NCBI GenBank assembly: GCA_032718475.1
Contig: JAUCBJ010001856.1
Span: 1 to 64,000, forward strand
DNA length: 64,000 nt
Direction: 5' to 3'
Source of the DNA: Nemertoderma westbladi
Lineage: Eukaryota; Animalia; Xenacoelomorpha
Part shown: positions 2,964 through 63,569 of the stretch, piece by piece
How positions within the stretch are numbered: the stretch's first letter is position 1
Layout: every line of letters starts with the position of its first letter
Notes under the pieces: generated by a model
Told to the model about the DNA's origin: nothing
Seen by the model: only the letters and a program-made list of their open reading frames with translations
Database searches by the model: none
Translations under genes and position numbers: made by a program

Positions 2964-35395
<32,432 letters not shown>

Positions 35396-38063: not shown

Positions 38064-38676
38064 GATGCTGTGATACCGTCGGGTTTGGATGCTGCGATAC
38101 CATCGGGATTGGATGCTGTGATACCATCGGGATTGGATCCGGTGATACCATCGGGATTGGATGCTGTGATACCATCGGGATTGGATCCGGTGATACCATC
38201 GGGATTGGATGCTGTGATACCATCGGGATTGGATACTGTGATACCATCGGGATTGGATACTGTGATACCGGCGGGATTGGATCCGGTGATACCATCGGGA
38301 TTGGATACTGTGATACCGGCGGGATTGGATCCTGTGACACCGGCGAGATTGGATGCTGTGATACCAGCGCGATTGGATGCTGTGATACCAGCGGGGTTGG
38401 ATCCTGAGATACCAGAGGGATAGGATCCGGTGATACCGGCGGGATTGGATACTGTGATACCGGCGGGATTGGATCCTGTGACACCGGCGAGATTGGATGC
38501 TGTGATACCAGCGCGATTGGATGCTGTGATACCAGCGGGGTTGGATCCTGAGATACCAGAGGGATAGGATCCGGTGATACCGGCGGGATTGGATCATGTG
38601 ATACCAGACGGATTGGATCCGGTGATACCGGCGGGATTGGATACTGTGATACCAGCGAGATTTGATGCTGTGATAC
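38064..38676. repeat. 24-bp minisatellite, about 25 copies
   Basis: Unit GATGCTGTGATACCATCGGGATTG with variants; includes a 144-bp higher-order duplication. Confidence 0.92.
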
Positions 38677-41600
38677 TGACCTCGGACGTACTTTATGGAC
38701 GACCCCCTACCCCCCTGACCTCGGACGTACTTTATGGACGACCCCCAACCCCCCTGACCTCGGACGTACTTTATGGACGACCCCCAACCCCCCTCTGACC
38801 TCGGACGTACTTTATGGACGACCCTCTACCCCCCTCTGACCTCGGACGTACTTTATGGACGACCCCCTACCCCCCTGACCTCGGACGTACTTTATGGACG
38901 ACCCCCAACCCCCCTCTGACCTCGGACGTACTTTATGGACGACCCTCTACCCCCCTCTGACCTCGGACGTACTTTATGGACGACCCCCTACCCCCCTCTG
39001 ACCTCGGACGTACTTTATGGACGACCCCCTACCCCCCTCTGACCTCGGACGTACTTTATGGACGACCCCCTACCCCCCTGACCTCGGACGTACTTTATGG
39101 ACGACCCCCCTACCCCCTCTGACCTCGGACGTACTTTATGGGCGACCCCCTCCCCCCTCTGACCTCGGACGTACTTTATGGACGACCCCCTACCCCCCTC
39201 TGACCTCGGACGTGCTTTATGGACGACCCCCTACCCCCCTCTGACCTCGGACGTACTTTATGGACGACCCCCTACCCCCCTGACCTCGGACGTACTTTAT
39301 GGACGACCCCCAACCCCCCTCTGACCTCGGACGTACTTTATGGACGACCCTCTACCCCCCTGACCTCGGACGTACTTTATGGACGACCCCCTACCCCCCT
39401 CTGACCTCGGACGTACTTTATGGACGACCCCCTACCCCCCTCTGACCTCGGACGTACTTTATGGACGACCCCCCTACCCCTTCTGACCTCGGACGTACTT
39501 TATGGGCGACCCCCTCCCCCCTCTGACCTCGGACGTACTTTATGGACGACCCCCTACCCCCTCTGACCTCGGACGTACTTTATGGACGACCCCCTACCCC
39601 CCTCTGACCTCGGACGTACTTTATGGACGACCCCCTACCCCCCTCTGACCTCGGACGTACTTTATGGACGACCCCCTACCCCCCTGACCTCGGACGTACT
39701 TTATGGACGACCCCCAACCCCCCTCTGACCTCGGACGTACTTTATGGACGACCCTCTACCCCCCTCTGACCTCGGACGTACTTTATGGACGACCCCCTAC
39801 CCCCCTCTGACCTCGGACGTACTTTATGGACGACCCCCTACCCCCCTCTGACCTCGGACGTACTTTATGGACGACCCCCTACCCCCTCTGACCTCGGACG
39901 TACTTTATGGACGACCCCCCTACCCCTTCTGACCTCGGACGTACTTTATGGGCGACCCCCTCCCCCCTCTGACCTCGGACGTACTTTATGGACGACCCCC
40001 TACCCCCCTCTGACCTCGGACGTACTTTATGGACGACCCCCTACCCCCCTCTGACCTCGGACGTACTTTATGGACGACCCCCTACCCCCTCTGACCTCGG
40101 ACGTACTTTATGGACGACCCCCTACCCCCTCTGACCTCGGACGTACTTTATGGACGACCCCCTACCCCCCTCTGACCTCGGACGTACTTTATGGACGACC
40201 CCCTACCCCCTCTGACCTCGGACGTACTTTATGGACGACCCCCTACCCCCTCTGACCTCGGACGTACTTTATGGACGACCCGCAACCCCCCTCTGACCTC
40301 GGACGTACTCTATGGACGACCCCCTACCCCCCTCTGACCTCGGACGTACTTTATGGACGACCCCCTACCCCCCTCTGACCTCGGACGTACTTTATGGACG
40401 ACCCCCTACCCCCTCTGACCTCGGACGTACTTTATGGACGACCCCCCTACCCCTTCTGACCTCGGACGTACTTTATGGGCGACCCCCTCCCCCCTCTGAC
40501 CTCGGACGTACTTTATGGACGACCCCCTACCCCCCTCTGACCTCGGACGTACTTTATGGACGACCCCCTACCCCCTCTGACCTCGGACGTACTTTATGGA
40601 CGACCCCCTACCCCCTCTGACCTCGGACGTACTTTATGGACGACCCCCCTACCCCTTCTGACCTCGGACGTACTTTATGGGCGACCCCCTCCCCCCTCTG
40701 ACCTCGGACGTACTTTATGGACGACCCCCTACCCCCTCTGACCTCGGACGTACTTTATGGACGACCCGCAACCCCCCTCTGACCTCGGACGTACTCTATG
40801 GACGACCCCCTACCCCCCTCTGACCTCGGACGTACTTTATGGACGACCCCCTACCCCCTCTGACCTCGGACGTACTTTATGGACGACCCCCCTACCCCTT
40901 CTGACCTCGGACGTACTTTATGGGCGACCCCCTCCCCCCTCTGACCTCGGACGTACTTTATGGACGACCCCCTACCCCCTCTGACCTCGGACGTACTTTA
41001 TGGACGACCCCCCCTCTGACCTCGGACGTACTTTATGGACGACCCCCTACCCCCCCTCTGACCTCGGACGTACTTTATGGACGACCCCCTACCCCCTCTG
41101 ACCTCGGACGTACTTTATGGACGACCCCCCTCTGACCTCGGACGTACTTTATGGACGACCCCCCTACCCCTTCTGACCTCGGACGTACTTTATGGGCGAC
41201 CCCCTCCCCCCTCTGACCTCGGACGTGCTTTATGGACGACCCCCTACCCCCTCTGACCTCGGACGTACTTTATGGACGATCCCCTACCCCCCTCTGACCT
41301 CGGACGTACTTTATGGACGACCCCCCTACCCCCCTCTGACCTCGGACGTACTTTATGGACGACCCCCTACCCCCTCTGACCTCGGACGTACTTTATGGAC
41401 GATCCCCTACCCCCCTCTGACCTCGGACGTACTTTATGGACGACCCCCCTACCCCCCTCTGACCTCGGACGTACTTTATGGACGACCCCCTACCCCCTCG
41501 GACCTCGGACGTACTTTATGGATGACCCCCTACCCCCTCTGACCTCGGACGTACTTTATGGGCGACCCCCTCCCCCCCTCTGACCTCGGACGTACTTTAT

Positions 41601-44600
41601 GGACGACCCCCTACCCCCTCTGACCTCGGACGTACTTTATGGGCGACCCCCTCCCCCCTCTGACCTCGGACGTACTTTATGGACGACCCGCAACCCCCCT
41701 CTGACCTCGGACGTACTTTATGGATGACCCCCTACCCCCTCTGACCTCGGACGTACTTTATGGGCGACCCCCTCCCCCCCTCTGACCTCGGACGTACTTT
41801 ATGGACGACCCCCTACCCCCTCTGACCTCGGACGTACTTTATGGACGACCCGCAACCCCCCTCTGACCTCGGACGTACTTTATGGACGACCCCCCTACCC
41901 CTTCTGACCTCGGACGTACTTTATGGGCGACCCCCTCCCCCCTCTGACCTCGGACGTACTTTATGGACGACCCCCTACCCCCTCTGACCTCGGACGTACT
42001 TTATGGACGACCCCCCCTCTGACCTCGGACGTACTTTATGGACGACCCCCTACCCCCCCTCTGACCTCGGACGTACTTTATGGACGACCCCCTACCCCCT
42101 CTGACCTCGGACGTACTTTATGGACGACCCCCCTCTGACCTCGGACGTACTTTATGGACGACCCCCCTACCCCTTCTGACCTCGGACGTACTTTATGGGC
42201 GACCCCCTCCCCCCTCTGACCTCGGACGTGCTTTATGGACGACCCCCTACCCCCTCTGACCTCGGACGTACTTTATGGACGATCCCCTACCCCCCTCTGA
42301 CCTCGGACGTACTTTATGGACGACCCCCCTACCCCCCTCTGACCTCGGACGTACTTTATGGACGACCCCCTACCCCCTCTGACCTCGGACGTACTTTATG
42401 GACGATCCCCTACCCCCCTCTGACCTCGGACGTACTTTATGGACGACCCCCCTACCCCCCTCTGACCTCGGACGTACTTTATGGACGACCCCCTACCCCC
42501 TCGGACCTCGGACGTACTTTATGGATGACCCCCTACCCCCTCTGACCTCGGACGTACTTTATGGGCGACCCCCTCCCCCCCTCTGACCTCGGACGTACTT
42601 TATGGACGACCCCCTACCCCCTCTGACCTCGGACGTACTTTATGGGCGACCCCCTCCCCCCTCTGACCTCGGACGTACTTTATGGACGACCCGCAACCCC
42701 CCTCTGACCTCGGACGTACTTTATGGATGACCCCCTACCCCCTCTGACCTCGGACGTACTTTATGGGCGACCCCCTCCCCCCCTCTGACCTCGGACGTAC
42801 TTTATGGACGACCCCCTACCCCCTCTGACCTCGGACGTACTTTATGGACGACCCGCAACCCCCCTCTGACCTCGGACGTACTCTATGGACGACCCTCTAC
42901 CCCCCTCTGACCTCGGACGTACTTTATGGACGACCCCCCTCTGACCTCGGACGTACTTTATGGACGACCCCCTACCCCCTCTGACCTCGGACGTACTTTA
43001 TGGACGACCCCCTACCCCCCTCTGACCTCGGACGTTCTTTATGGACGACCCCCTACCCCCTCTGACCTCGGACGTACTTTATGGACGATCCCCTACCCCC
43101 CTCGGACCTCGGACGTACTTTATGGATGACCCCCTACCCCCTCTGACCTCGGACGTACTTTATGGGCGACCCCCTCCCCCCCTCTGACCTCGGACGTACT
43201 TTATGGACGACCCCCTACCCCCCTGACCTCGGACGTACTTTATGGACGACCCCCAACCCCCCTCTGACCTCGGACGTACTTTATGGACGACCCCCCTACC
43301 CCCCTCTGACCTCGGACGTACTTTATGGACGACCCCCTACCCCCCTCTGACCTCGGACGTACTTTATGGACGACCCCCTACCCCCCTCTGACCTCGGACG
43401 TACTTTATGGACGACCCCCCTACCCCCTCTGACCTCGGACGTACTTTATGGGCGACCCCCTCCCCCCTCTGACCTCGGACGTACTTTATGGACGACCCCC
43501 TACCCCCCTCTGACCTCGGACGTACTTTATGGACGACCCCTACCCCCCTCTGACCTCGGACGTACTTTATGGACGACCCCCTACCCCCCTCTGACCTCGG
43601 ACGTACTTTATGGACGACCCCCTACCCCCTCTGACCTCGGACGTACTTTATGGACGACCCCCTACCCCCCTCTGACCTCGGACGTACTTTATGGACGACC
43701 CCCTACCCCCTCTGACCTCGGACGTACTTTATGGCGACCCCCTCCCCCCTCTGACCTCGGACGTACTTTATGGACGACCCCCCTACCCCCTCTGACCTCG
43801 GACGTACTTTATGGGCGACCCCCTCCCCCCTCTGACCTCGGACGTGCTTTATGGACGACCCCCTACCCCCTCTGACCTCGGACGTACTTTATGGACGATC
43901 CCCTACCCCCCTCTGACCTCGGACGTACTTTATGGACGACCCCCCTACCCCCCTCTGACCTCGGACGTACTTTATGGACGACCCCCTACCCCCTCTGACC
44001 TCGGACGTACTTTATGGACGATCCCCTACCCCCCTCTGACCTCGGACGTACTTTATGGACGACCCCCCTACCCCCCTCTGACCTCGGACGTACTTTATGG
44101 ACGACCCCCTACCCCCTCGGACCTCGGACGTACTTTATGGATGACCCCCTACCCCCTCTGACCTCGGACGTACTTTATGGGCGACCCCCTCCCCCCCTCT
44201 GACCTCGGACGTACTTTATGGACGACCCCCTACCCCCTCTGACCTCGGACGTACTTTATGGGCGACCCCCTCCCCCCTCTGACCTCGGACGTACTTTATG
44301 GACGACCCGCAACCCCCCTCTGACCTCGGACGTACTTTATGGATGACCCCCTACCCCCTCTGACCTCGGACGTACTTTATGGGCGACCCCCTCCCCCCCT
44401 CTGACCTCGGACGTACTTTATGGACGACCCCCTACCCCCTCTGACCTCGGACGTACTTTATGGACGACCCGCAACCCCCCTCTGACCTCGGACGTACTCT
44501 ATGGACGACCCTCTACCCCCCTCTGACCTCGGACGTACTTTATGGACGACCCCCCTCTGACCTCGGACGTACTTTATGGACGACCCCCTACCCCCTCTGA

Positions 44601-46655
44601 CCTCGGACGTACTTTATGGACGACCCCCTACCCCCCTCTGACCTCGGACGTTCTTTATGGACGACCCCCTACCCCCTCTGACCTCGGACGTACTTTATGG
44701 ACGATCCCCTACCCCCCTCGGACCTCGGACGTACTTTATGGATGACCCCCTACCCCCTCTGACCTCGGACGTACTTTATGGGCGACCCCCTCCCCCCCCT
44801 CTGACCTCGGACGTACTTTATGGACGACCCCCTACCCCCCTGACCTCGGACGTACTTTATGGACGACCCCCAACCCCCCTCTGACCTCGGACGTACTTTA
44901 TGGACGACCCCCTACCCCCCTCTGACCTCGGACGTACTTTATGGACGACCCCCTACCCCCCTGACCTCGGACGTACTTTATGGACGACCCCCAACCCCCT
45001 TCTGACCTCGGACGTACTTTATGGACGACCCCCTACCCCCTCTGACCTCGGACGTACTTTATGGGCGACCCCCTCCCCCCTCTGACCTCGGACGTACTTT
45101 ATGGACGACCCGCAACCCCCCTCTGACCTCGGACGTACTCTATGGACGACCCTCTACCCCCCTCTGACCTCGGACGTACTTTATGGACGACCCCCCTCTG
45201 ACCTCGGACGTACTTTATGGACGACCCCCTACCCCCTCTGACCTCGGACGTACTTTATGGACGACCCCCTACCCCCCTCTGACCTCGGACGTTCTTTATG
45301 GACGACCCCCTACCCCCTCTGACCTCGGACGTACTTTATGGACGATCCCCTACCCCCCTCTGACCTCGGACGTACTTTATGGACGACCCCCCTACCCCCC
45401 TCTGACCTCGGACGTACTTTATGGATGACCCCCTACCCCCTCTGACCTCGGACGTACTCTATGGACGACCCTCTACCCCCCTCTGACCTCGGACGTACTT
45501 TATGGACGACCCCCTACCCCCCTCTGACCTCGGACGTACTTTATGGACGACCCCCTACCCCCCTCTGACCTCGGACGTACTTTATGGACGACCCCCTACC
45601 CCCTCTGACCTCGGACGTACTTTATGGACGACCCCCTACCCCCCTCTGACCTCGGACGTACTTTATGGACGACCCCCTACCCCCCTCTGACCTCGGACGT
45701 ACTTTATGGACGACCCCCTACCCCCTCTGACCTCGGAATAACCTTATGGACGACCCCCTACCCCCCTCTGACCTCGGACGTACTTTATGGACGACCCCCC
45801 CCCCCCCCCCTCTGACCTCGGACGTACTTTATGGACGACCCTCCTACCCCCCTCTGACCTCGGACGTACTTTATGGACGACCCCCTACCCCCCTCTGACC
45901 TCGGACGTACTTTATGGACGACCCCCTACCCCCCTCTGACCTCGGACGTACTTTATGGACGACCCCCTACCCCCCTCTGACCTCGGACGTACTTTATGGA
46001 CGACCCCCCTACCCTCCTCTGACCTCGGACGTACTTTATGGACGACCCGCAACCCCCCTCTGACCTCGGACGTACTCTATGGACGACCCTCTACCCCCCT
46101 CTGACCTCGGACGTACTTTATGGACGACCCCCTACTCCCCTCTGACCTCGGACGTACTTTATGGACGACTCCCTACCCCCCTCTGACCTCGGACGTACTT
46201 TATGGACGACCCCCCTCTGACCTCGGACGTACTTTATGGACGACCCCCTACCCCCCTCTGACCTCGGACGTACTTTATGGACGACCCCCTACCCCCCTCT
46301 GACCTCGGACGTACTTTATGGACGACCCCCTACCCCCCTCTGACCTCGGACGTACTTTATGGACGACCCCCTACCCCCCTCTGACCTCGGACGTACTTTA
46401 TGGACGACCCCCTACCCCCCTGACCTCGGACGTACTTTATGGACGACCCCCCTACCCCTTCTGACCTCGGACGTACTTTATGGGCGACCCCCTCCCCCCT
46501 CTGACCTCGGACGTACTTTATGGACGACTCCCTACCCCCCTCTGACCTCGGACGTACTTTATGGACGACCCCCTACCCCCCTCTGACCTCGGACGTACTT
46601 TATGGACAACCCCCTACTCCCCTCTGACCTCGGACGTACTTTATGGACGACCCCT
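38676..46655. repeat. About 40-bp tandem array (about 195-200 copies, 8 kb) with variable C-runs, probably an amplified DNA-transposon terminus
   Basis: Unit CTGACCTCGGACGTACTTTATGGACGACCCCCTACCCCC(C)T; the last copy ends ...GGACGACCCCT followed by TAA and unique sequence. Confidence 0.95.
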
Positions 46656-48407: not shown

Positions 48408-48435
48408 ATGTGGACTTGGATGGCCTGTTTGATAG
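48408..48435 (+). CDS. ShK gene exon 1 (start of signal peptide)
   Basis: aagATG context; encodes MWTWMACLI; donor AG|GTAAGT; phase matches exon 2. Confidence 0.75.
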
Positions 48436-51400
48436 GTAAGTTGTTGTTCGCAACCTCAAACTAAATCTGTTTTAACAAATGATGCTACTACTACTACGAT
48501 CGGAATGCTGCATGTTGTGCCGGCTTGACGACAAAATTGCGCCGCCACAACTTCCTTGGACCCATGACATTTGCTAGATCATCCGCATCGTCAAGGCCAG
48601 TGCCCTTTAAGGTCGTGTCATGTCACGATCAAGTCATGGGCTGTCCACCATGCTTATCCACTCCATGCGACCGCCAAAGCGTAAGATTATGCACTGGCTG
48701 GTCCTGACGGCGAAAGCAATGTCTTGCAAAGCGGAGGCGGTTCCGTTCAAGTGTTAAGCTAGGGAAGACTAATCGAACACCTCCAATGTTGTATAGAGTC
48801 TGATTGGGGATGTGTTCATTGTACTTGACACAATGAACCCGGCGCAGCATTCAGGATTCCCAGAGATTTGGTATCCTCTACAATCAGAGCCCAGCATGGA
48901 CTCCTTAAGGTTCCGTTTTATTCTATGGGACTTCCAAATTCTGGACAGACTATTTAACGCAGCCCATGCCTTCCCCTTACGTATCCGAAGGTGTTCACCT
49001 CACCATGGTGGATGACTTATGTAGCAGAAGTCATCCACGTGCTCAAGCGAACCGTCTCTAGAGCTTATGCCCTTACAATCAGACATTTATTGAGGACTGT
49101 CTAGGTTGACTGTCATGATTTTGGTCTTCTTGGAATTTACAAAAAAACCGACAATAGAAGCAACCTACACCAATGAGAAGAGGCGCCTTTGGGCTCCCTC
49201 TAGTGATTCTGACAGTACCTCTAAGTCATCAGTAAATTAAGGTTCCACAACTTTGACGGAACCCATTTTGGTTTGCAGTCTCTCAACAGGATCCCTGATG
49301 GGATTTAATATAATTCTGTTGTATAGCTTTGGAGCAATCGAGATTAGCGAGATTAGCGAGATTCCTCGAAAAGATCCACGGGTTGTTAGGTTGCCCTTCT
49401 TTGGGGCTGGGACCAACTTATTTGTTTTCAGTTCTTGAGGGACTATCTTTGTCCTATACATGTCCACAATAATGGTGTGAATGAGCTCCAAACACTCAGG
49501 AATTTTAAAGACCTCAGGGGCACGCCATTTACTCCACTGGCACGAATCATAGTATAGGTCGCGATCGATTTTAATAATCGCTGAATGGGCGTGCAACAAA
49601 GTCTGTGAGCATCATAAGCATACAATATGTTTGTTTAGTAGGGCCAGATCAGCATTGTCCTTCTTTGTGTCTTTCTGTGCGAACGTCTGATATGATATTA
49701 ATATCTCAGCAGCGGCTCTGTCAAATTTAATGAAATTGTGTGCGTGTTATGTAGTAGACTAAAAAATTCATATAGTTTTACTCATAAAATCTCGATCAAA
49801 GTTTCAAAATTTTCACACTAGACATAGACAATGCCTATTTGGACCGACCACACAGTACTTTATAGACTGTTTGATACTTAAATCGCGTACACCAAATCCC
49901 CGCAACGAGTAACGTGCATGTAGCAAGTTCACTTTATTTCCTCTGGTTATGTTCCCTCACTTAACAGTCTTCAGGAATTAGCTAACCACAATTATTGTGT
50001 GTTAAAACCGGTTTTATTTTTCAGTTCTACCTGCCCTTTCCATGTCGGGAGTGATTCTTCCTCCGGCTTGTGTAGAGGATGCTGATATCGGCGTACTCTG
50101 CGCTGGATGGGCCGCCGTTGGTGAGTGCCTTAACAACCCCGATTACATGTATATCCACTGCCAGAAGAGCTGCAACAAATGTGATGATGGATACGCCGGT
50201 TAGTATATACAGTAGTTCCTTATTGCGTAATATGATATTTACTATTTGAGGTTTTGGCAGCACAAGGTTTCTAGACATCTTAAAAGTTGAATATGAAATA
50301 ATAAGGATTTTGACTCTCAATTTGGCAATTTAAATTCCTATAAACCCCTCCAAAAAATATACACTTTTTTGACATCGTATCACTTTCATATGCAGTTTTT
50401 ATTCTGAAACCTTATTTCGAAATTTTACATTTATACTTGTTGCAAAGTTTATATATGTAAATACGTGTATCACATCATAATAATTGATTATATTCCATCA
50501 AAGTATAAATAAATTAATAATCTGTTATAGATTGCGTCGAAGAGTCGGATGCCCATTTCGATTGCGAAGGCTGGGCTGCTGATGGACAATGTGGAAGTAA
50601 CGCCCAGTTCATGTACTCCTACTGTCAGTCATCCTGTAACAAGTGTGACGATGGAACTGGTAAGCTACCAAGGCATCATACTAGCTAGGTAGCTACTCAA
50701 CTAGCTAGTTATTATAGTTGATGTAATGTTACTGTATCTGTCTATTGTTAGTTAGTACATTAATTAATAACTTTTCTATATTATTCCCCGTCTATTAATA
50801 TAATAATTAATTCATTAATTTTATACTTTATATACTTATATATTTCCCAGTCTGCGTGGAGCGTGATGATCTCGATGATAACTGCGCCGAGTGGGCTGCC
50901 GAAGGGCAATGTACGGCTAACAAAGCCTACATGTACAACTACTGCCAGTCCAGTTGCGATAAATGCGGAGATGGTGTCGACGCACCCCCAGCTGATCCCT
51001 GCCGTAAGTGTTTTATGCTAAAACTGTAGTATTTGTGTGGTTTTTATGTATTTTACAGTAAGTGCATAACAGCTGTTGGATCTGCTTCTTCTAGTAAGTA
51101 ATATCGCTATTTCTCTTTCAGCTTGTGTTGAAGCTCCCGACAATAACTTCCATTGTCCTGGCTGGGCCGCCGATGGTGAATGTGGCGCTAATCCCGACTA
51201 CATGTACGAACAGTGTCAGACAACCTGTAACAAATGCGACGATGGAACTGGTAAGCTACCAAGGCCTTCAAATACTGTAACTAGGTAGCTAATCATATAG
51301 CTAGTTTTGTCTTAACCTTCAAGGTACAAAACATCTTTCACAGTTAGGAAATTATGTTAAAACAATCGAAAGATAATTTCCAGTCCCAATTTAATAAATA

Positions 51401-54400
51401 ATCGATTACTTTCAGTTTGTAACGAGAGACCAGACTTGGATGTGAACTGCCCCGGATGGGCTGCTGATGGAGAGTGTGGTAATAACCCACGGTACATGTA
51501 CAACTACTGTCAGACTTCCTGCAACTACTGTAATGATGGAGAAAGTAAGTGGAACTTACCGGTATTTAGAAACTCACTTTTATTTAGTACTTTTAATTAA
51601 AAGTTTAAAATCATTAGGATACCATATTCAGATTGATAGGTCTAGGTAAAATAAATGCAGAGCAAGATGTAAGTCCGAGTTACTGGAAGGGAAATTTGGG
51701 AAGTGGTTGTAATGCATGACCGTGGTTGTCGGTTGTTTATAAACCCTGAGTTACTGGAAGGGATGTTTGGGCAGTGGTTGTAATGCATGGCCGTGGTTGC
51801 CGGTTGTTTACAAACCCCGAGTTACTGGAAGGGATGTTTGGGCAGTGGTTGTAATGCATGGGCGTGGTTGCCGGTTGTTTACAAACCCTGAGATACTGGA
51901 AGGGATGTTTGGGCAGTGGTTGTAATGCATGGCCGTGGTTGCCGGTTGTTTACAAACCCTGAGTTACTGGAAGGGATGTTTGGGCAGTGGTTGTAATGCA
52001 TGGCCGTGGTTGCCGGTTGTTTATAAAGCCCGAGTTACTGGAAGGAATGTTTGGGCAGTGGTTGTAATGCATGGCCGTGGTTGCCGGTTGTTTACAAACC
52101 CCGAGTTACTGGAAGGGATGTTTGGGCAGTGGTGGAAATGCATGGCCGTGGTTGCCGGTTGTTTACAAACCCAGAAGATACGTGAATCAGCGTGTCTCAG
52201 CATTTAATTCTGGAGCATAGTTTATGATGGAACCCGTTTGATATTAATTGGGCAATGGCACGTCGTCGTGGCCTCTTAGTCCATATATATTAATCCCACC
52301 ACCATCTGGAGGGTTGTCGATGGCATGGAGTATGCCCTTGATAATTATTTAATGAATGTGAGATTCTTTTAGGCTCGTTAGGCCAAGGAATGCCTGTTCA
52401 CCTCCATGGATGATCTTCTACAGTAAACCCGTCCACTCTGTTTCCCAAATTAATGCAGCTGTTCACCACCATGGATGATCTTCTACAGTTAACCCTTCCA
52501 ATCTGTTTCCTAAATAAATGCATGTTCACCACCAACGGGGCCAGGAATGCCACGCCTGCTTTATGTAATGCAGATGTAATACATACTGCTACTACTGTAA
52601 TAATACTACTACAGTACGATACCTACTGTAATGCAATCTTATAATTTTTCCCCCAGACTGTGTCGAATTACCCGACGATAACGACAACTGTTCGGGATGG
52701 GCCGCTATCGGCGAATGTACAGCCAACAAATCCTACATGTACACCCACTGTCAGACTTCTTGCAACAAATGTGATGATGGAGGTAAGTATGTTGTACAGT
52801 ACACCCACTGTCGGACTTCTTGCAACAAATGTGATGACGGCGGTAAGTATGTTGTACACCCACTGTCAGACTTCTTGTAACAAATGTGATGATGGCGGTA
52901 AGTATGTTGTACACCCACTGTCGTACTTCTTGTAACAAATGTGATGATGGCGGTAAGTATGTTGTACACCCACTGTCAGACTTCTTGTAACAAATGTGAT
53001 GATGGCGGTAAGTATGTTGTACACCCACTGTCAGACTTCTTGCAACAAATGTGATGATGGCGGTAAGTTGTACACCCACTGTCGGACTTCTTGTAACAAA
53101 TGTGATGATGGCGGTAAGTATGTTGTACACCCACTGTCGTACTTCTTGTAACAAATGTGATGATGGCGGTAAGTATGTTGTACACCCACTGTCAGACTTC
53201 TTGTAACAAATGTGATGATGGCGGTAAGTATGTTGTACACCCACTGTCAGACTTCTTGTAACAAATGTGATGATGGCGGTAAGTATGTGGCACCCACTGT
53301 CGTACTTCTTGTAACAAATGTGATGATGGCGGTAAGTATGTTGTACACCCACTGTCAGACATCTTGTAACAAATGTGATGATGGCGGTAAGTATGTTGTA
53401 CACCCACTGTCGGACTTCTTGTAACAAATGTGATGATGGCGGTAAGTATGTTGTACACCCACTGTCGTACTTCTTGTAACAAATGTGATGATGGCGGTAA
53501 GTATGTTGTACACCCACTGTCAGACTTCTTGTAACAAATGTGATGATGGCGGTAAGTATGTTGTACACCCACTGTCGTACTTCTTGTAACAAATGTGATG
53601 ATGGCGGTAAGTATGTTGTACACCCACTGTCAGACTTCTTGTAACAAATGTGATGATGGCGGTAAGTATGTTGTACACCCACTGTCGGACTTCTTGTAAC
53701 AAATGTGATGATGGCGGTAAGTATGTGTACACCCACTGTCGGACTTCTTGTAACAAATGTGATGATGGCGGTAAGTATGTTGTACACCCACTGTCAGACT
53801 TCTTGTAACAAATGTGATGATGGCGGTAAGTATGTTGTACACCCACTGTCGGACTTCTTGTAACAAATGTGATGATGGCGGTAAGTATGTTGTACACCCA
53901 CTGTCGTACTTCTTGTAACAAATGTGATGATGGGGGTAAGTATGTTGTACACCCACTGTCAGACTTCTTGTAACAAATGTGATGATGGCGGTAAGTATGT
54001 TGTACACCCACTGTCACACTTCTTGTAACAAATGTGATGATGGCGGTAAGTATGTGTACACCCACTGTCGGACTTCTTGTAACAAATGTGATGATGGCGG
54101 TAAGTATGTTGTACACCCACTGTCGGACTTCTTGCCACAAATGTGATGATGGCGGTAAGTATGTTGTACACCCACTGTCAGACTTCTTGCAACAAATGTG
54201 ATGATGGCGGTAAGTATGTTGTACACCCACTGTCAGACTTCTTGCAACAAATGTGATGATGGCGGTAAGTATGTTGTACACCCACTGTTAGAATTCTTGT
54301 AACAAATGTGATGATGGCGGTAAGTATGTTGTACACCCACTGTCACACTTCTTGTAACAAATGTGATGATGGCGGTAAGTATGTTGTACACCCACTGTCA

Positions 54401-57400
54401 CACTTCTTGTAACAAATGTGATGATGGCGGTAAGTATGTTGTACACCCACTGTCAGACTTCTTGCAACAAATGTGATGATGGCGGTAAGTATGTTGTACA
54501 CCCACTGTTAGACTTCTTGTAACAAATGTGATGATGGCGGTAAGTATGTTGTACACCCACTGTCACACTTCTTGTAACAAATGTGATGATGGCGGTAAGT
54601 ATGTTGTACAGTGTACACCCACTGTCGGACTTCTTGTAACAAATGTGATGATGGCGGTAAGTATGTTGTACACCCACTGTCAGACTACTTGTAACAAATG
54701 TGATGATGGCGGTAAGATGTTGTACAGTGTACACCCACTGTCGGACTTCTTGTAACAGATGTGATGATGGCGGTAAGTATGTTGTACACCCACTGTCAGA
54801 CTTCTTGTAACAAATGTGTTGATGGCGGTAAGTATGTTGTACACCCACTGTCAGACTTCTTGTAACAAATGTGATGTTGGCGGTAAGTATTTTGTACAGT
54901 GTACACCCACTGTCGGACTTCTTGTAACAAATGTGATGATGGCGGTAAGTATGTTGTACACCCACTGTCACACTTCTTGTAACAAATGTGATGATGGCGG
55001 TAAGTATGTTGTACACCCACTGTCAGACTTCTTGCAACAAATGTGATGATGGCGGTAAGTATGTTGTACACCCACTGTTAGACTTCTTGTAACAAATGTG
55101 ATGATGGCGGTAAGTATGTTGTACACCCACTGTCACACTTCTTGTAACAAATGTGATGATGGCGGTAAGTATGTTGTACACCCACTGTCACACTTCTTGT
55201 AACAAATGTGATGATGGCGGTAAGTATGTTGTACACCCACTGTCGGACTTCTTGTAACAAATGTGATGATGGCGGTAAGTATGTTGTACAGTGTACACCC
55301 ACTGTCGGACTTCTTGTAACAAATGTGATGATGGCGGTAAGTATGTTGTACACCCACTGTCAGACTTCTTGTAACAAATGTGATGATGGCGGTAAGTATG
55401 TGTACACCCACTGTCGGACTTCTTGTAACAAATGTGATGATGGCGGTAAGTATGTTGTACACCCACTGTCGGACTTCTTGTAACAAATGTGATGATGGCG
55501 GTAAGTATGTTGTACACCCACTGTCAGATTTCTTGTAACAAATGTGATGATGGCGGTAAGTATGTTGTACACCCACTGTCAGACTTCTTGTAACAAATGT
55601 GATGATGGCGGTAAGTATGTTGTACACCCACTGTCAGACTTCTTGTAAGAAATGTGATGATGGCGGTAAGTATGTTGTACACCCACTGTCAGACTTCTTG
55701 CAACAAATGTGATGATGGCGGTAAGTATGTTGTACACCCACTGTTAGACTTCTTGTAACAAATGTGATGATGGCGGTAAGTATGTTGTACACCCACTGTC
55801 ACACTTCTTGTAACAAATGTGATGATGGCGGTAAGTATGTTGTACACCCACTGTCCCACTTCTTGTAACAAATGTGATGATGCGATGGCGGTAAGTATGT
55901 TGTACACCCACTGTCGGACTTCTTGTAACAAATGTGATGATGGCGGTAAGTATGTTGTACAGTGTACACCCACTGTCGGACTTCTTGTAACAAATGTGAT
56001 GATGGCGGTAAGTATGTTGTACAGTGTACACCCACTGTCGGACTTCTTGTAACAAATGTGATGATGGCGGTAAGTATGTTGTACAGTGTACACCCACTGT
56101 CGGACTTCTTGTAACAAATGTGATGATGGCGGTAAGTATGTTGTACACCCACTGTCAGACTACTTGTAACAAATGTGATGATGGCGGTAAGTATGTTGTA
56201 CACCCACTGTCGTACTTCTTGTAACAAATGTGATGATGGCGGTAAGTATGTTGTACACCCACTGTCAGACTTCTTGTAACAAATGTGATGATGGCGGTAA
56301 GTATGTTGTACACCCACTGTCACACTTCTTGTAACAAATGTGATGATGGCGGTAAGTATGTGTACACCCACTGTCGGACTTCTTGTAACAAATGTGATGA
56401 TGGCGGTAAGTATGTTGTACACCCACTGTCGGACTTCTTGCCACAAATGTGATGATGGCGGTAAGTATGTTGTACACCCACTGTCAGACTTCTTGCAACA
56501 AATGTGATGATGGCGGTAAGTATGTTGTACACCCACTGTCAGACTTCTTGCAACAAATGTGATGATGGCGGTAAGTATGTTGTACACCCACTGTTAGACT
56601 TCTTGTAACAAATGTGATGATGGCGGTAAGTATGTTGTACACCCACTGTCACACTTCTTGTAACAAATGTGATGATGGCGGTAAGTATGTTGTACACCCA
56701 CTGTCACACTTCTTGTAACAAATGTGATGATGGCGGTAAGTATGTTGTACACCCACTGTCAGACTTCTTGCAACAAATGTGATGATGGCGGTAAGTATGT
56801 TGTACACCCACTGTTAGACTTCTTGTAACAAATGTGATGATGGCGGTAAGTATGTTGTACACCCACTGTCACACTTCTTGTAACAAATGTGATGATGGCG
56901 GTAAGTATGTTGTACACCCACTGTCCCACTTCTTGTAACAAATGTGATGATGCGATGGCGGTAAGTATGTTGTACACCCACTGTCGGACTTCTTGTAACA
57001 AATGTGATGATGGCGGTAAGTATGTTGTACAGTGTACACCCACTGTCGGACTTCTTGTAACAAATGTGATGATGGCGGTAAGTATGTTGTACAGTGTACA
57101 CCCACTGTCGGACTTCTTGTAACAAATGTGATGATGGCGGTAAGTATGTTGTACACCCACTGTCAGACTACTTGTAACAAATGTGATGATGGCGGTAAGA
57201 TGTTGTACAGTATACACCCACTGTCGGACTTCTTGTAACAAATGTGATGATGGCGGTAAGTATGTTGTACACCCACTGTCAGACTTCTTGTAACAAATGT
57301 GTTGATGGCGGTAAGTATGTTGTACACCCACTGTCAGACTTCTTGTAACAAATGTGATGTTGGCGGTAAGTATTTTGTACAGTGTACACCCACTGTCGGA

Positions 57401-60400
57401 CTTCTTGTAACAAATGTGATGATGGCGGTAAGTATGTTGTACACCCACTGTCACACTTCTTGTAACAAATGTGATGATGGCGGTAAGTATGTTGTACACC
57501 CACTGTCAGACTTCTTGCAACAAATGTGATGATGGCGGTAAGTATGTTGTACACCCACTGTTAGACTTCTTGTAACAAATGTGATGATGGCGGTAAGTAT
57601 GTTGTACACCCACTGTCACACTTCTTGTAACAAATGTGATGATGGCGGTAAGTATGTTGTACACCCACTGTCACACTTCTTGTAACAAATGTGATGATGG
57701 CGGTAAGTATGTTGTACACCCACTGTCGGACTTCTTGTAACAAATGTGATGATGGCGGTAAGTATGTTGTACAGTGTACACCCACTGTCGGACTTCTTGT
57801 AACAAATGTGATGATGGCGGTAAGTATGTTGTACAGTGTACACCCACTGTCGGACTTCTTGTAACAAATGTGATGATGGCGGTAAGTATGTTGTACAGTG
57901 TACACCCACTGTCGGACTTCTTGTAACAAATGTGATGATGGCGGTAAGTATGTTGTACACCCACTGTCAGACTACTTGTAACAAATGTGATGATGGCGGT
58001 AAGATGTTGTACAGTGTACACCCACTGTCGGACTTCTTGTAACAAATGTGATGATGGCGGTAAGTATGTTGTACACCCACTGTCAGACTTCTTGTAACAA
58101 ATGTGTTGATGGCGGTAAGTATGTGGTACACCCACTGTCAGACTTCTTGTAACAAATGTGATGTTGGCGGTAAGTATTTTGTACAGTGTACACCCACTGT
58201 CGGACTTCTTGTAACAAATGTGATGATGGCGGTAAGTATGTTGTACACCCACTGTCAGACTTCTTGTAACAAATGTGATGATGGCGGTAAGTATGTGTAC
58301 ACCCACTGTCGGACTTCTTGTAACAAATGTGATGATGGCGGTAAGTATGTTGTACACCCACTGTCGGACTTCTTGTAACAAATGTGATGATGGCGGTAAG
58401 TATGTTGTACACCCACTGTCAGATTTCTTGTAACAAATGTGATGATGGCGGTAAGTATGTTGTACACCCACTGTCGGACTTCTTCTAACAAATGTGATGA
58501 TGGCGGTAAGTATGTTGTACACCCACTGTCAGACTTCTTGTAACAAATGTGATGATGGCGGTAAGTATGTTGTACACCCACTGTCAGACTTCTTGTAAGA
58601 AATGTGATGATGGCGGTAAGTATGTTGTACACCCACTGTCAGACTTCTTGTAACAAATGTGATGATGGCGGTAAGTATGTTGTACACCCACTGTCAGACT
58701 ACTTGTAACAAATGTAATGATGGCGGTAAGTATGTTGTACACCCACTGTCGGACTTCTTGTAACAAATATGATGATGGCGGTAAGTATGTTGTACACCCA
58801 CTGTCAGACTTCTTGTAACAAATGTGATGATGGCGGTAAGTATGTTGTACACCCACTGTCAGACTTCTTGTAACAAATGTGATGATGGCGGTAAGTATGT
58901 TGTACACCCACTGTCGGACTTCTTGTAACAAATGTGATGATGGCGGTAAGTATGTTGTACACCCACTGTCAGACTTCTTGTAACAATGTGATGATGGCGG
59001 TAAGTATGTTGTACACCCACTGTCAGACTTCTTGTAACAAATATGATGATGGCGGTAAGTATGTTGTACACCCACTGTCAGACTTCTTGTAACAAATGTG
59101 ATGATGGCGGTAAGTATGTTGTACACCCACTGTCACACTTCTTGTAACAAATGTGATGATGGCGGTAAGTATGTGTACACCCACTGTCGGACTTCTTGTA
59201 ACAAATGTGATGATGGCGGTAAGTATGTTGTACACCCACTGTCACACTTCTTGTAACAAATGTGATGATGGCGGTAAGTATGTTGTACACCCACTGTCCC
59301 ACTTCTTGTAACAAATGTGATGATGCGATGGCGGTAAGTATGTTGTACACCCACTGTCGGACTTCTTGTAACAAATGTGATGATGGCGGTAAGTATGTTG
59401 TACACCCACTGTCAGACTTCTTGTAACAAATGTGATGATGGCGGTAAGTATGTTGTACACCCACTGTCAGACTTCTTGTAACAAATGTGATGATGGCGGT
59501 AAGTATGTTGTACACCCACTGTCACACTTCTTGTAACAAATGTGATGATGGCGGTAAGTATGTGTACACCCACTGTCGGACTTCTTGTAACAAATGTGAT
59601 GATGGCGGTAAGTATGTTGTACACCCACTGTCGGACTTCTTGCCACAAATGTGATGATGGCGGTAAGTATGTTGTACACCCACTGTCAGACTTCTTGCAA
59701 CAAATGTGATGATGGCGGTAAGTATGTTGTACACCCACTGTCAGACTTCTTGCAACAAATGTGATGATGGCGGTAAGTATGTTGTACACCCACTGTTAGA
59801 CTTCTTGTAACAAATGTGATGATGGCGGTAAGTATGTTGTACACCCACTGTCACACTTCTTGTAACAAATGTGATGATGGCGGTAAGTATGTTGTACACC
59901 CACTGTCACACTTCTTGTAACAAATGTGATGATGGCGGTAAGTATGTTGTACACCCACTGTCAGACTTCTTGCAACAAATGTGATGATGGCGGTAAGTAT
60001 GTTGTACACCCACTGTTAGACTTCTTGTAACAAATGTGATGATGGCGGTAAGTATGTTGTACACCCACTGTCACACTTCTTGTAACAAATGTGATGATGG
60101 CGGTAAGTATGTTGTACAGTGTACACCCACTGTCGGACTTCTTGTAACAAATGTGATGATGGCGGTAAGTATGTTGTACACCCACTGTCGGACTTCTTGT
60201 AACAAATGTGATGATGGCGGTAAGTATGTTGTACAGTGTACACCCACTGTCGGACTTCTTGTAACAAATGTGATGATGGCGGTAAGTATGTTGTACAGTG
60301 TACACCCACTGTCGGACTTCTTGTAACAAATGTGATGATGGCGGTAAGTATGTTGTACACCCACTGTCAGACTACTTGTAACAAATGTGATGATGGCGGT

Positions 60401-63374
60401 AAGATGTTGTACAGTATACACCCACTGTCGGACTTCTTGTAACAAATGTGATGATGGCGGTAAGTATGTTGTACACCCACTGTCAGACTTCTTGTAACAA
60501 ATGTGTTGATGGCGGTAAGTATGTTGTACACCCACTGTCAGACTTCTTGTAACAAATGTGATGTTGGCGGTAAGTATTTTGTACAGTGTACACCCACTGT
60601 CGGACTTCTTGTAACAAATGTGATGATGGCGGTAAGTATGTTGTACACCCACTGTCACACTTCTTGTAACAAATGTGATGATGGCGGTAAGTATGTTGTA
60701 CACCCACTGTCAGACTTCTTGCAACAAATGTGATGATGGCGGTAAGTATGTTGTACACCCACTGTTAGACTTCTTGTAACAAATGTGATGATGGCGGTAA
60801 GTATGTTGTACACCCACTGTCACACTTCTTGTAACAAATGTGATGATGGCGGTAAGTATGTTGTACACCCACTGTCACACTTCTTGTAACAAATGTGATG
60901 ATGGCGGTAAGTATGTTGTACACCCACTGTCGGACTTCTTGTAACAAATGTGATGATGGCGGTAAGTATGTTGTACAGTGTACACCCACTGTCGGACTTC
61001 TTGTAACAAATGTGATGATGGCGGTAAGTATGTTGTACAGTGTACACCCACTGTCGGACTTCTTGTAACAAATGTGATGATGGCGGTAAGTATGTTGTAC
61101 AGTGTACACCCACTGTCGGACTTCTTGTAACAAATGTGATGATGGCGGTAAGTATGTTGTACACCCACTGTCAGACTACTTGTAACAAATGTGATGATGG
61201 CGGTAAGATGTTGTACAGTGTACACCCACTGTCGGACTTCTTGTAACAAATGTGATGATGGCGGTAAGTATGTTGTACACCCACTGTCAGACTTCTTGTA
61301 ACAAATGTGTTGATGGCGGTAAGTATGTGGTACACCCACTGTCAGACTTCTTGTAACAAATGTGATGTTGGCGGTAAGTATTTTGTACAGTGTACACCCA
61401 CTGTCGGACTTCTTGTAACAAATGTGATGATGGCGGTAAGTATGTTGTACACCCACTGTCAGACTTCTTGTAACAAATGTGATGATGGCGGTAAGTATGT
61501 GTACACCCACTGTCGGACTTCTTGTAACAAATGTGATGATGGCGGTAAGTATGTTGTACACCCACTGTCGGACTTCTTGTAACAAATGTGATGATGGCGG
61601 TAAGTATGTTGTACACCCACTGTCAGATTTCTTGTAACAAATGTGATGATGGCGGTAAGTATGTTGTACACCCACTGTCGGACTTCTTCTAACAAATGTG
61701 ATGATGGCGGTAAGTATGTTGTACACCCACTGTCAGACTTCTTGTAACAAATGTGATGATGGCGGTAAGTATGTTGTACACCCACTGTCAGACTTCTTGT
61801 AAGAAATGTGATGATGGCGGTAAGTATGTTGTACACCCACTGTCAGACTTCTTGTAACAAATGTGATGATGGCGGTAAGTATGTTGTACACCCACTGTCA
61901 GACTACTTGTAACAAATGTAATGATGGCGGTAAGTATGTTGTACACCCACTGTCGGACTTCTTGTAACAAATATGATGATGGCGGTAAGTATGTTGTACA
62001 CCCACTGTCAGACTTCTTGTAACAAATGTGATGATGGCGGTAAGTATGTTGTACACCCACTGTCAGACTTCTTGTAACAAATGTGATGATGGCGGTAAGT
62101 ATGTTGTACACCCACTGTCGGACTTCTTGTAACAAATGTGATGATGGCGGTAAGTATGTTGTACACCCACTGTCAGACTTCTTGTAACAATGTGATGATG
62201 GCGGTAAGTATGTTGTACACCCACTGTCAGACTTCTTGTAACAAATATGATGATGGCGGTAAGTATGTTGTACACCCACTGTCAGACTTCTTGTAACAAA
62301 TGTGATGATGGCGGTAAGTATGTTGTACACCCACTGTCAGACTTCTTGTAACAAATGTGATGATGGCGGTAAGTATGTGTACACCCACTGTCAGACTTCT
62401 TGTAACAAATGTGATGATGGCGGTAAGTATGTTGTACACCCACTGTCACACTTCTTGTAACAAATGTGATGATGGCGGTAAGTATGTTGTACACCCACTG
62501 TCCCACTTCTTGTAACAAATGTGATGATGGCGGTAAGTATGTTGTGCACCCACTGTCGGACTTCTTGTAACAAATGTGATGATGGCGGTAAGTATGTTGT
62601 ACACCCACTGTCAGACTTCTTGTAACAAATGTGATGATGGCGGTAAGTATGTTGTACACCCACTGTCGGACTTCTTGTAACAAATGTGATGATGGCGGTA
62701 AGTATGTTGTACACCCACTGTCAGACTTCTTGTAACAAATGTGATGATGGCGGTAAGTATGTTGTACACCCACTGTCAGACTACTTGTAACAAATGTGAT
62801 GATGGCGGTAAGTATGTTCGTACACCCACTGTCGGACTTCTTGTAACAAATGTGATGATGGCGGTAAGTATGTTGTACACCCACTGTCAGACTTCTTGTA
62901 ACAAATGTGATGATGGCGGTAAGTATGTTGTACACCCACTGTCAGACTTCTTGTAACAAATGTGATGATGGCGGTAAGTATGTCTGTACACCCACTGTCG
63001 GACTTCTTGTAACAAATGTGATGATGGCGGTAAGTATGTTGTACACCCACTGTCACACTTCTTGTAACAAATGTGATGATGGCGGTAAGTATGTTGTACA
63101 CCCACTGTCAGACTTCTTGCAACAAATGTGATGATGGCGGTAAGTACGTCATACAGTACAGTCTGTCACAGTTCTGTAATATTTGTTAACATTAGATCCA
63201 CGTCCTTTTTCACAAAGCCGTACAGTTACAATGTTATACACGATTGTTACAGGTTGCAACCAGGATGCCGACGATAACCCGAATTGCGGTCCGTGGGCGG
63301 CGGAAGGACAATGTGGAGCTAACCCGGCGTTTATGTACACTCACTGCCAAACCTCCTGCAACAAGTGCGGTTAA
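48408..63374 (+). CDS. Secreted protein with seven tandem ShK (ShKT) domains, 329 aa: join(48408-48435,50025-50198,50531-50659,50851-51003,51122-51250,51416-51544,52657-52782,63253-63374)
   Basis: N-terminus MWTWMACLIVLPALSMSG is hydrophobic and signal-peptide-like. Seven exons each encode C-x9-C-x2-WA-x2-G-x-C-x2-N-x3-M-x3-C-x3-C-x2-C, the ShKT six-cysteine pattern. All introns are GT-AG phase 1, and the spliced CDS is 990 nt. Confidence 0.9.
48485..49680 (-). mobile_element. Second decayed copy of the RTE-like LINE, antisense in ShK intron 1
   Basis: Minus-strand MLRRVHCVKYNEHI...HGGQPMT closely matches 1175-1510. Upstream RT motifs read VPAPKKGNL..FRGISL..KLYNRIILN. (CTA)n tail at 48485-48497. 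The central RT region is deleted near 49240. Confidence 0.87.
50025..50198 (+). CDS. ShK gene exon 2 (rest of signal peptide and domain 1)
   Basis: CVEDADIGVLCAGWAAVGECLNNPDYMYIHCQKSCNKC. Confidence 0.9.
50531..50659 (+). CDS. ShK gene exon 3 (domain 2)
   Basis: CVEESDAHFDCEGWAADGQCGSNAQFMYSYCQSSCNKC. Confidence 0.9.
50851..51003 (+). CDS. ShK gene exon 4 (domain 3 and linker)
   Basis: CVERDDLDDNCAEWAAEGQCTANKAYMYNYCQSSCDKCGDGVDAPPADPC. Confidence 0.88.
51122..51250 (+). CDS. ShK gene exon 5 (domain 4)
   Basis: CVEAPDNNFHCPGWAADGECGANPDYMYEQCQTTCNKC. Confidence 0.9.
51416..51544 (+). CDS. ShK gene exon 6 (domain 5)
   Basis: CNERPDLDVNCPGWAADGECGNNPRYMYNYCQTSCNYC. Confidence 0.9.
51677..52172. 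repeat. 71-bp minisatellite, 7 copies, inside ShK intron 6
   Basis: Unit GAGTTACTGGAAGGGATGTTTGGGCAGTGGTTGTAATGCATGGCCGTGGTTGCCGGTTGTTTACAAACCC(C/T); period 71 (51677, 51748, 51819...). Confidence 0.93.
52390..52535. repeat. Degenerate direct repeat of about 65 bp, 2+ copies
   Basis: ctgttcacc-ccatggatgatcttctacagt-aaccc-tcca-tctgtttcc occurs twice, with a partial third start. Confidence 0.65.
52657..52782 (+). CDS. ShK gene exon 7 (domain 6); its 3' end is the first copy of the 55-bp array
   Basis: CVELPDDNDNCSGWAAIGECTANKSYMYTHCQTSCNKC; donor GTAAGT at 52783. Confidence 0.9.
52738..63146 (+). repeat. 55-bp tandem array (about 185-190 copies, 10.4 kb); unit = last 45 nt of ShK exon 7 plus donor GTAAGTATGT
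   Basis: Unit TGTACACCCACTGTCAGACTTCTTGTAACAAATGTGATGATGGCG-GTAAGTATGT, with 54-, 60- and 62-bp variants. Confidence 0.97.
63253..63374 (+). CDS. ShK gene exon 8 (domain 7, terminal)
   Basis: Acceptor ttacag; CNQDADDNPNCGPWAAEGQCGANPAFMYTHCQTSCNKCG-stop. Confidence 0.9.
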
Positions 63375-63569
63375 ATACAGTACTGTACTGCTGTATAAGT
63401 AGGGGCAATAGTCTCTGCATTAGATATTCTAGTATCTAGTACCTACTGCAGTGCAGTACCGGTTACCAGCCTGACCTGTTGTCAGAAAGACTAACAATTA
63501 CTGAATTACTGATACGAGTTTGGTCAGTTGGTGCTGGAACTTGTTATTTACATCCTAAATTGCTAATTT

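Follow-up and report, generated by a model that had tools for sequence, protein, structure and literature searches.

The window examined here, a 64,000-nt stretch of contig JAUCBJ010001856.1 of Nemertoderma westbladi, carries on its forward strand a gene of eight exons that starts with an ATG at 48408 and ends with a TAA at 63374, with all junctions in phase 1. Exons 1 to 6 lie at 48408-48435, 50025-50198, 50531-50659, 50851-51003, 51122-51250 and 51416-51544. Exon 7 (52657-52782, 126 nt, phase 1-1) encodes one ShK domain, and exon 8 (63253-63374) encodes the last ShK domain and the stop codon. The first exon, with its ATG at 48408 and a signal peptide, is putative. The Pfam ShK profile (PF01549) scores above its curated cut-off in all seven of exons 2 to 8 (28-38 bits vs 20.9), confirming the ShK domain that a first-pass annotation of the same sequence had assigned to exon 7; this exon is the seventh of eight if the predicted exon 1 is counted. 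Blocking of potassium channels is known for some ShK-domain proteins; the assignment made for this gene is a domain match only and says nothing about activity. Because several related ShK exon sequences occur among the loose contig ends in all four sequencing runs compared (X1 to X4; 62975-63377), the gene is a member of a paralogue family. Exons 3 and 5 have a donor and the first 16 intron bases in common (50531-50700 and 51122-51290), which reads as the trace of an exon duplication within the gene. Inside intron 6, away from exon borders, a 71-nt unit is repeated seven times (51675-52172) and a 65-nt unit 2.3 times (52389-52534).

The neighbouring gene encodes a glycerol kinase (2964-35395). 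It is intact, with nine exons, an FGGY_N domain and spliced contigs in run X4. Its exon 1 is 57% identical to a Lingula protein, and the best 120 of its 623 matches are all from animals, at 51-58% identity. Two tandem arrays involve its exon borders. The acceptor array (5297-29416, 24 kb) contains about 588 copies of a 41-nt unit made up of the acceptor and the first 26 nt of exon 4, and is the largest border array in the window. The donor array (30992-31870) contains 20 copies of a 44-nt unit made up of the end of exon 6 and the donor AAG/GTAAGA, where the slash marks the exon border; the last copy has no GT. Both kinase arrays are deep in the DNA runs X1 and X2, and the local haplotype of X1 in the kinase region has 28 differences from the window in 995 letters. 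Six long arrays make up 70% of the 64-kb window, and three of these lie away from exon borders. The intergenic region at 38064-46654 holds a 24-nt array (25.5 copies) followed directly by an 8-kb array of a 41-nt unit (198 copies), which we take to resemble the end of a DNA transposon. Retrotransposon-like fragments were noticed by eye at 600-1510 and 30340-30385; the latter is covered at very high depth in X1-X3, and its sequence is also found at 1300-1345.

Intron 7 of the ShK gene begins within a tandem array. Tandem Repeats Finder, which supplied the boundaries and the period, places the array at 52738-63146 on the forward strand, with a period of 55, 185.9 copies and 94% matches. The unit consists of exon 7's last 45 nt together with the first 10 nt of intron 7, the first copy spans the exon 7-intron 7 border, and the units follow one another head-to-tail. 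When the units were split at donor sites, 186 G/GTAAG sites were found, from 52783 to 63140, with the exact sequence G/GTAAGT at 181 of them and the T at +6 missing in the other five. The first-pass annotation had described a donor amplified about 187 times, with G/GTAAGT in nearly every unit; the amplification and the near-universal donor both stand, while the count is corrected, since 186 donor sites enclose 185 units between the first and the last. These 185 units are mostly 55 nt long (140 units), followed by 62 nt (21), 54 nt (11), 61 nt (5), 60 nt (4) and other lengths (4), and they fall into 36 variants of 51-62 nt. They are near-identical, with a mean of 2.2 differences from the commonest unit; judged from their sequence, the units are young. 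With regard to a possible stable hairpin that would hide the donors, a single fold of three units, made without a shuffle control, gave -38.2 kcal/mol.

Measured from its first donor, intron 7 occupies 52783-63252, or 10,470 nt, in agreement with the earlier estimate of 10.5 kb. The last GT (63140) continues into unique sequence, and an AG at 63251-63252 would close a residual intron of 113 nt (63140-63252, forward strand) that ends at the acceptor of exon 8, again as first proposed. Productive use of this last donor with the 113-nt intron was considered and rejected, as it would yield an exon of 10,483 nt with an early stop.

The sequence of the units holds traces of how the array may have arisen. 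The word TGTACA occurs in exon 7 (52738-52743), and both TGTACA and GTACA occur at the start of the intron. The earlier proposals that the unit originated as a duplicated exon tail plus donor, and that its junction lies at a microhomology, were both upheld, the parts being joined at this short word common to exon and intron. GTACA forms the joint of the first unit (60 nt) and TGTACA that of the common 55-nt unit; in the 62-nt unit this word is interrupted by 7 inserted nt. We infer that a first short duplication occurred by mis-pairing at the common GTACA/TGTACA word, that slippage then trimmed or lengthened the unit to give the 60-, 55- and 62-nt forms, and that unequal exchange or further slippage multiplied blocks of units. 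A higher-order duplication is visible at 56954-62339 on the forward strand, where 2,182 nt recur without any change 3,204 nt further on; a run of 38 units appears in the same order across this duplication, compared with at most four in 100 shuffled orders. At one position the C of the exon is kept in both end copies, and a T is found in 161 of the 186 units. The intron start of the last copy differs from that of the first at +8, +11 and +12, and is unlike that of all other copies; these differences would fit either CpG decay or the presence of two different alleles at the two ends of the array.

Arrays that cross exon borders have been described before. Human F7 has a 37-bp VNTR that straddles the border of exon 7 and intron 7, and splicing there is reported to use the most upstream donor alone (PMC1557585, Borensztajn et al. 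2006). As in the ShK array, the first unit spans the exon-intron border and a donor is present in every unit. However, F7 has 5-9 copies that include 4 exon bases, compared with about 186 copies and 45 exon bases in the ShK array, and the real donor is matched in full by its F7 copies, whereas the ShK copies differ from theirs at -2. F7 was tested by mutagenesis, whereas the ShK array is known from sequence and contigs. Human 6-16 (IFI6), CBS, LMNB2 and PDGF are described as carrying 10-25 repeated donors behind the authentic one (PMC1557585). In ABCA7, intron 18 contains a VNTR with a 25-bp unit that starts with the donor GT; its copy number ranges from 12 to about 427, the longest alleles measure 10,678 bp, and the VNTR is linked to splicing changes (PMC5954066). 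The ABCA7 VNTR is like the ShK array in having a donor GT in its unit, and its long alleles match the ShK array in size. It differs in that the 25-bp unit, as described, has no exon part, whereas 45 nt of the ShK unit are exonic, and in that ABCA7 has measurements of how its length varies and of the splicing effects linked to length, whereas the ShK array is known at one assembled length.

Further parallels come from the "mirages" of amphioxus (Adh3, BflGb6/BflGb9), where copies of donor and acceptor borders are found at several loci, splicing is reported to be regular, and the interior of the arrays is homogenised with the ends excluded (PMC3087553, Ebner et al. 2010). Ebner et al. called the mechanism behind mirages unclear (PMC3087553). 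The arrays of the window are like mirages in that both kinds of border are involved at several loci of one invertebrate genome; they differ in scale, with 3-6 units in BflGb6 compared with 186 and 588 in the window. The ShK array also shows what characterises mirage-type arrays, concerted evolution on the inside with the end copies left out. The mirages of amphioxus Adh3 are reportedly unstable in somatic tissue. The ShK array is a new, large example of a known repeat type; a literature search that covered few subscription journals found no genome-wide study of border-spanning arrays in invertebrates.

The authentic donor of intron 7, GAG/GTAAGT at 52783-52788, can be told apart from its copies. 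It is the only one of the 186 sites with an A at -2; among the 185 copies, 184 read GCG/GT and one reads GGG/GT. The first-pass annotation had named the first donor (52783) as the one that preserves the reading frame. It is not the sole one, since 58 of the 186 donors keep the frame, two of which are also stop-free, at 52783 and 52843. The second of these (52843-52848) lies 60 nt downstream of the first and would add 20 residues if used. On read-through, the first in-frame stop is a TAA at 52878-52880, so all donors after 52843 would be non-productive if joined directly to exon 7, because this TAA would be included.

Evidence on the splicing of intron 7 came from X4, a run from a third sample that is labelled "DNA?" and was taken as RNA from its coverage pattern. 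X4 is spliced in behaviour: one contig of 1,619 nt skips two GT..AG introns of the glycerol kinase gene. The same contig continues into the exons beyond both kinase arrays without any additional units, using the last acceptor of the one array and the first donor of the other. For the ShK gene, X4 shows no cover on the unique part of intron 7 (63155-63234) and a summed depth of about 1e5 on exon 8, where one 60-nt contig has no differences and a depth of 25,000; related ShK exons may add to these depths. The main X4 joint, from 63137 to 63251 at a depth of 14,586, consists of the last letters of exon 7 itself followed by exon 8, and its A at -2 matches one donor of the 186, the first. A second joint, at a depth of 64, is one letter shorter and is likely an error. 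Neither of these two listed X4 joints uses a copy donor (GCG/GT), and neither uses the second donor at 52843. Minor use of copy donors may occur, since contigs drop rare forms, and three loose X4 ends at 63141 do not point to any one donor. Interpretation of the main joint is complicated by the depth of zero in X4 on array-specific letters (63039): the X4 individual may for this reason lack the array, and an allele without it would produce an identical joint.

Taken as a whole, the array is a large border-spanning minisatellite. It is likely to be drifting, with no function of its own, and likely to be removed within one 10.5-kb intron from the first donor. The spliceosome would define the 126-nt exon 7 and choose the donor that lies furthest upstream and that also matches U1 best. 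An error at the third donor or beyond would bring in a stop and lead to degradation; the cost of the array would thus be small and it could grow, in a genome that seems to expand many short units to kilobase arrays.

An alternative, which we consider unlikely, accepts the neutral origin and proposes that array length tunes the output of the gene, with longer alleles slowing or misdirecting the splicing of intron 7 by analogy with the ABCA7 VNTR. Misdirected splicing could take the form of second-donor use, exon skipping or mini-exon inclusion, and there are precedents for such events: one-unit retention and exon skipping were observed for ABCA7 (PMC5954066), and 6-16 and CBS are reported to use two pseudo-donors beside the real one (PMC1557585), whereas no pseudo-donor is used among the X4 joints listed for the ShK array. 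The ShK array itself has the material for these routes. Its second donor is in frame and stop-free, as noted above, and between 54612 and 61435 on the forward strand are 26 long units (61-62 nt) in which ACAG is followed by 45 nt and a GT. In all 26 the 45 nt form a candidate mini-exon, stop-free and in phase 1-1, that would code for the second half of an ShK domain; the first-pass annotation missed these candidates. However, no pyrimidine tract goes with their acceptors, a strong donor stands 16-17 nt before each of these, and the X4 joints listed include no mini-exon joint and none of the other products expected under length tuning.

Less probable still is a reading built on the first-pass annotation, which had suggested that dense U1 snRNP sites could affect splicing kinetics, nuclear retention or premature-polyadenylation control: that the array is kept as a dense platform for the U1 snRNP and controls premature polyadenylation or nuclear retention. 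We regard this as very unlikely. The dense U1 sites exist on paper: scored against an 11-letter U1 complement, 177 of the 186 sites match at nine letters, compared with ten for the first donor and seven to nine for the gene's six other donors. The function drawn from these sites is unsupported. Neither AATAAA nor ATTAAA occurs in 52783-63252, the array plus the residual intron, which leaves control of premature polyadenylation with no such signal to act on, and of ten variant poly(A) hexamers looked for in the array, nine are absent and AAGAAA occurs three times. Telescripting within the array was rejected, there being no canonical poly(A) signals. For nuclear retention there is a precedent, as RNAs with 5' splice-site motifs are kept from leaving the nucleus via U1-70K and ZFC3H1 (PMC9074902). 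In that report, however, the retained RNAs are mature or misprocessed ones in which the motif is still present, whereas the motifs of the array would leave with the excised intron.

The pattern of substitutions could also be read in favour of a U1 platform. All 22 substitution types lie outside the seven donor columns of the 55 (P = 0.05 if substitutions are uniform), which is a weak hint that the donors are kept. Against this, a deletion removes +6 in five units, and ten adjacent non-donor columns are also invariant. The youth and near-identity of the units count against a U1 platform as well. Moreover, because the largest border array in the window repeats an acceptor and three of the long arrays lie off exon borders, no U1-specific cause is needed.

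The size of the array was assessed in public sequencing data. Five runs from three studies contain the upstream part of the ShK gene, none of them recorded as RNA. The runs were compared from the exon-8 side of the array, as contigs, and contig depth is not copy number. In the DNA run X2, the depth of array-specific contigs is 1,357 vs 5.57 on the unique flank, and in the DNA run X3 it is 766 vs 8; the resulting array/flank ratios, 244 and 96, are too rough to give the length of the array. The 31-mers of these array contigs have on average 127 (X2) and 134 (X3) occurrences in the window, and none at the true boundary. With array-specific contigs this deep in X2 and X3, the array is real and large in at least two samples. 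Among the 24 loose ends listed, of 49 on the exon-8 side, none represents an array-free allele. It is extremely improbable that the array was created by the assembly, or that its length in vivo is much smaller: no contig spans it, depth gives no copy number and one of the DNA samples may be the source of the window itself, but array-specific 31-mers are deep in two samples from two studies, the 36 unit variants stand in a non-random block order, and X2 and X3 contain a unit variant, with 4 nt inserted at 63083, that is not among the 36 of the window.

The assembled allele may nevertheless not be the one that is expressed. In X1, X2 and X3 alike, the longest contigs of the flank cease to fit the window at 63377, and X2 and X3 differ from it in the residual intron. 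Because of the break at 63377, the allele of the window may differ from the expressed one, and the break itself suggests an insertion specific to the window's allele. A high-depth repeat (63377-63560) starts 3 nt after the ShK stop codon.

The presence of three border arrays in one window raises the question of whether exon borders are favoured sites. Under random seeding, at least three of six arrays would fall on a border with P = 0.005 in this one window; without the ShK array, which prompted the analysis, the corresponding value for at least two of five is P = 0.037, again in one window. The excess of border arrays is a hint from a single window, and we regard as tentative, and rather doubtful, the proposal that giant minisatellites in this genome start preferentially at exon borders, with the ShK array also storing 26 in-frame cassettes of 45 nt. 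If it were true, border seeding would point to a repeat-generating process linked to splicing or transcription, and the 26 cassettes could add half-domains or seed new introns. If borders proved to be enriched genome-wide, both the origin of mirages and the model of intron gain by duplication would become directly testable. The locus is also a natural test of splice-site choice, with one real donor ahead of 185 near-equal copies in the ShK gene and one real acceptor behind nearly 590 copies in the neighbouring kinase gene, and with spliced transcripts of both genes already public.
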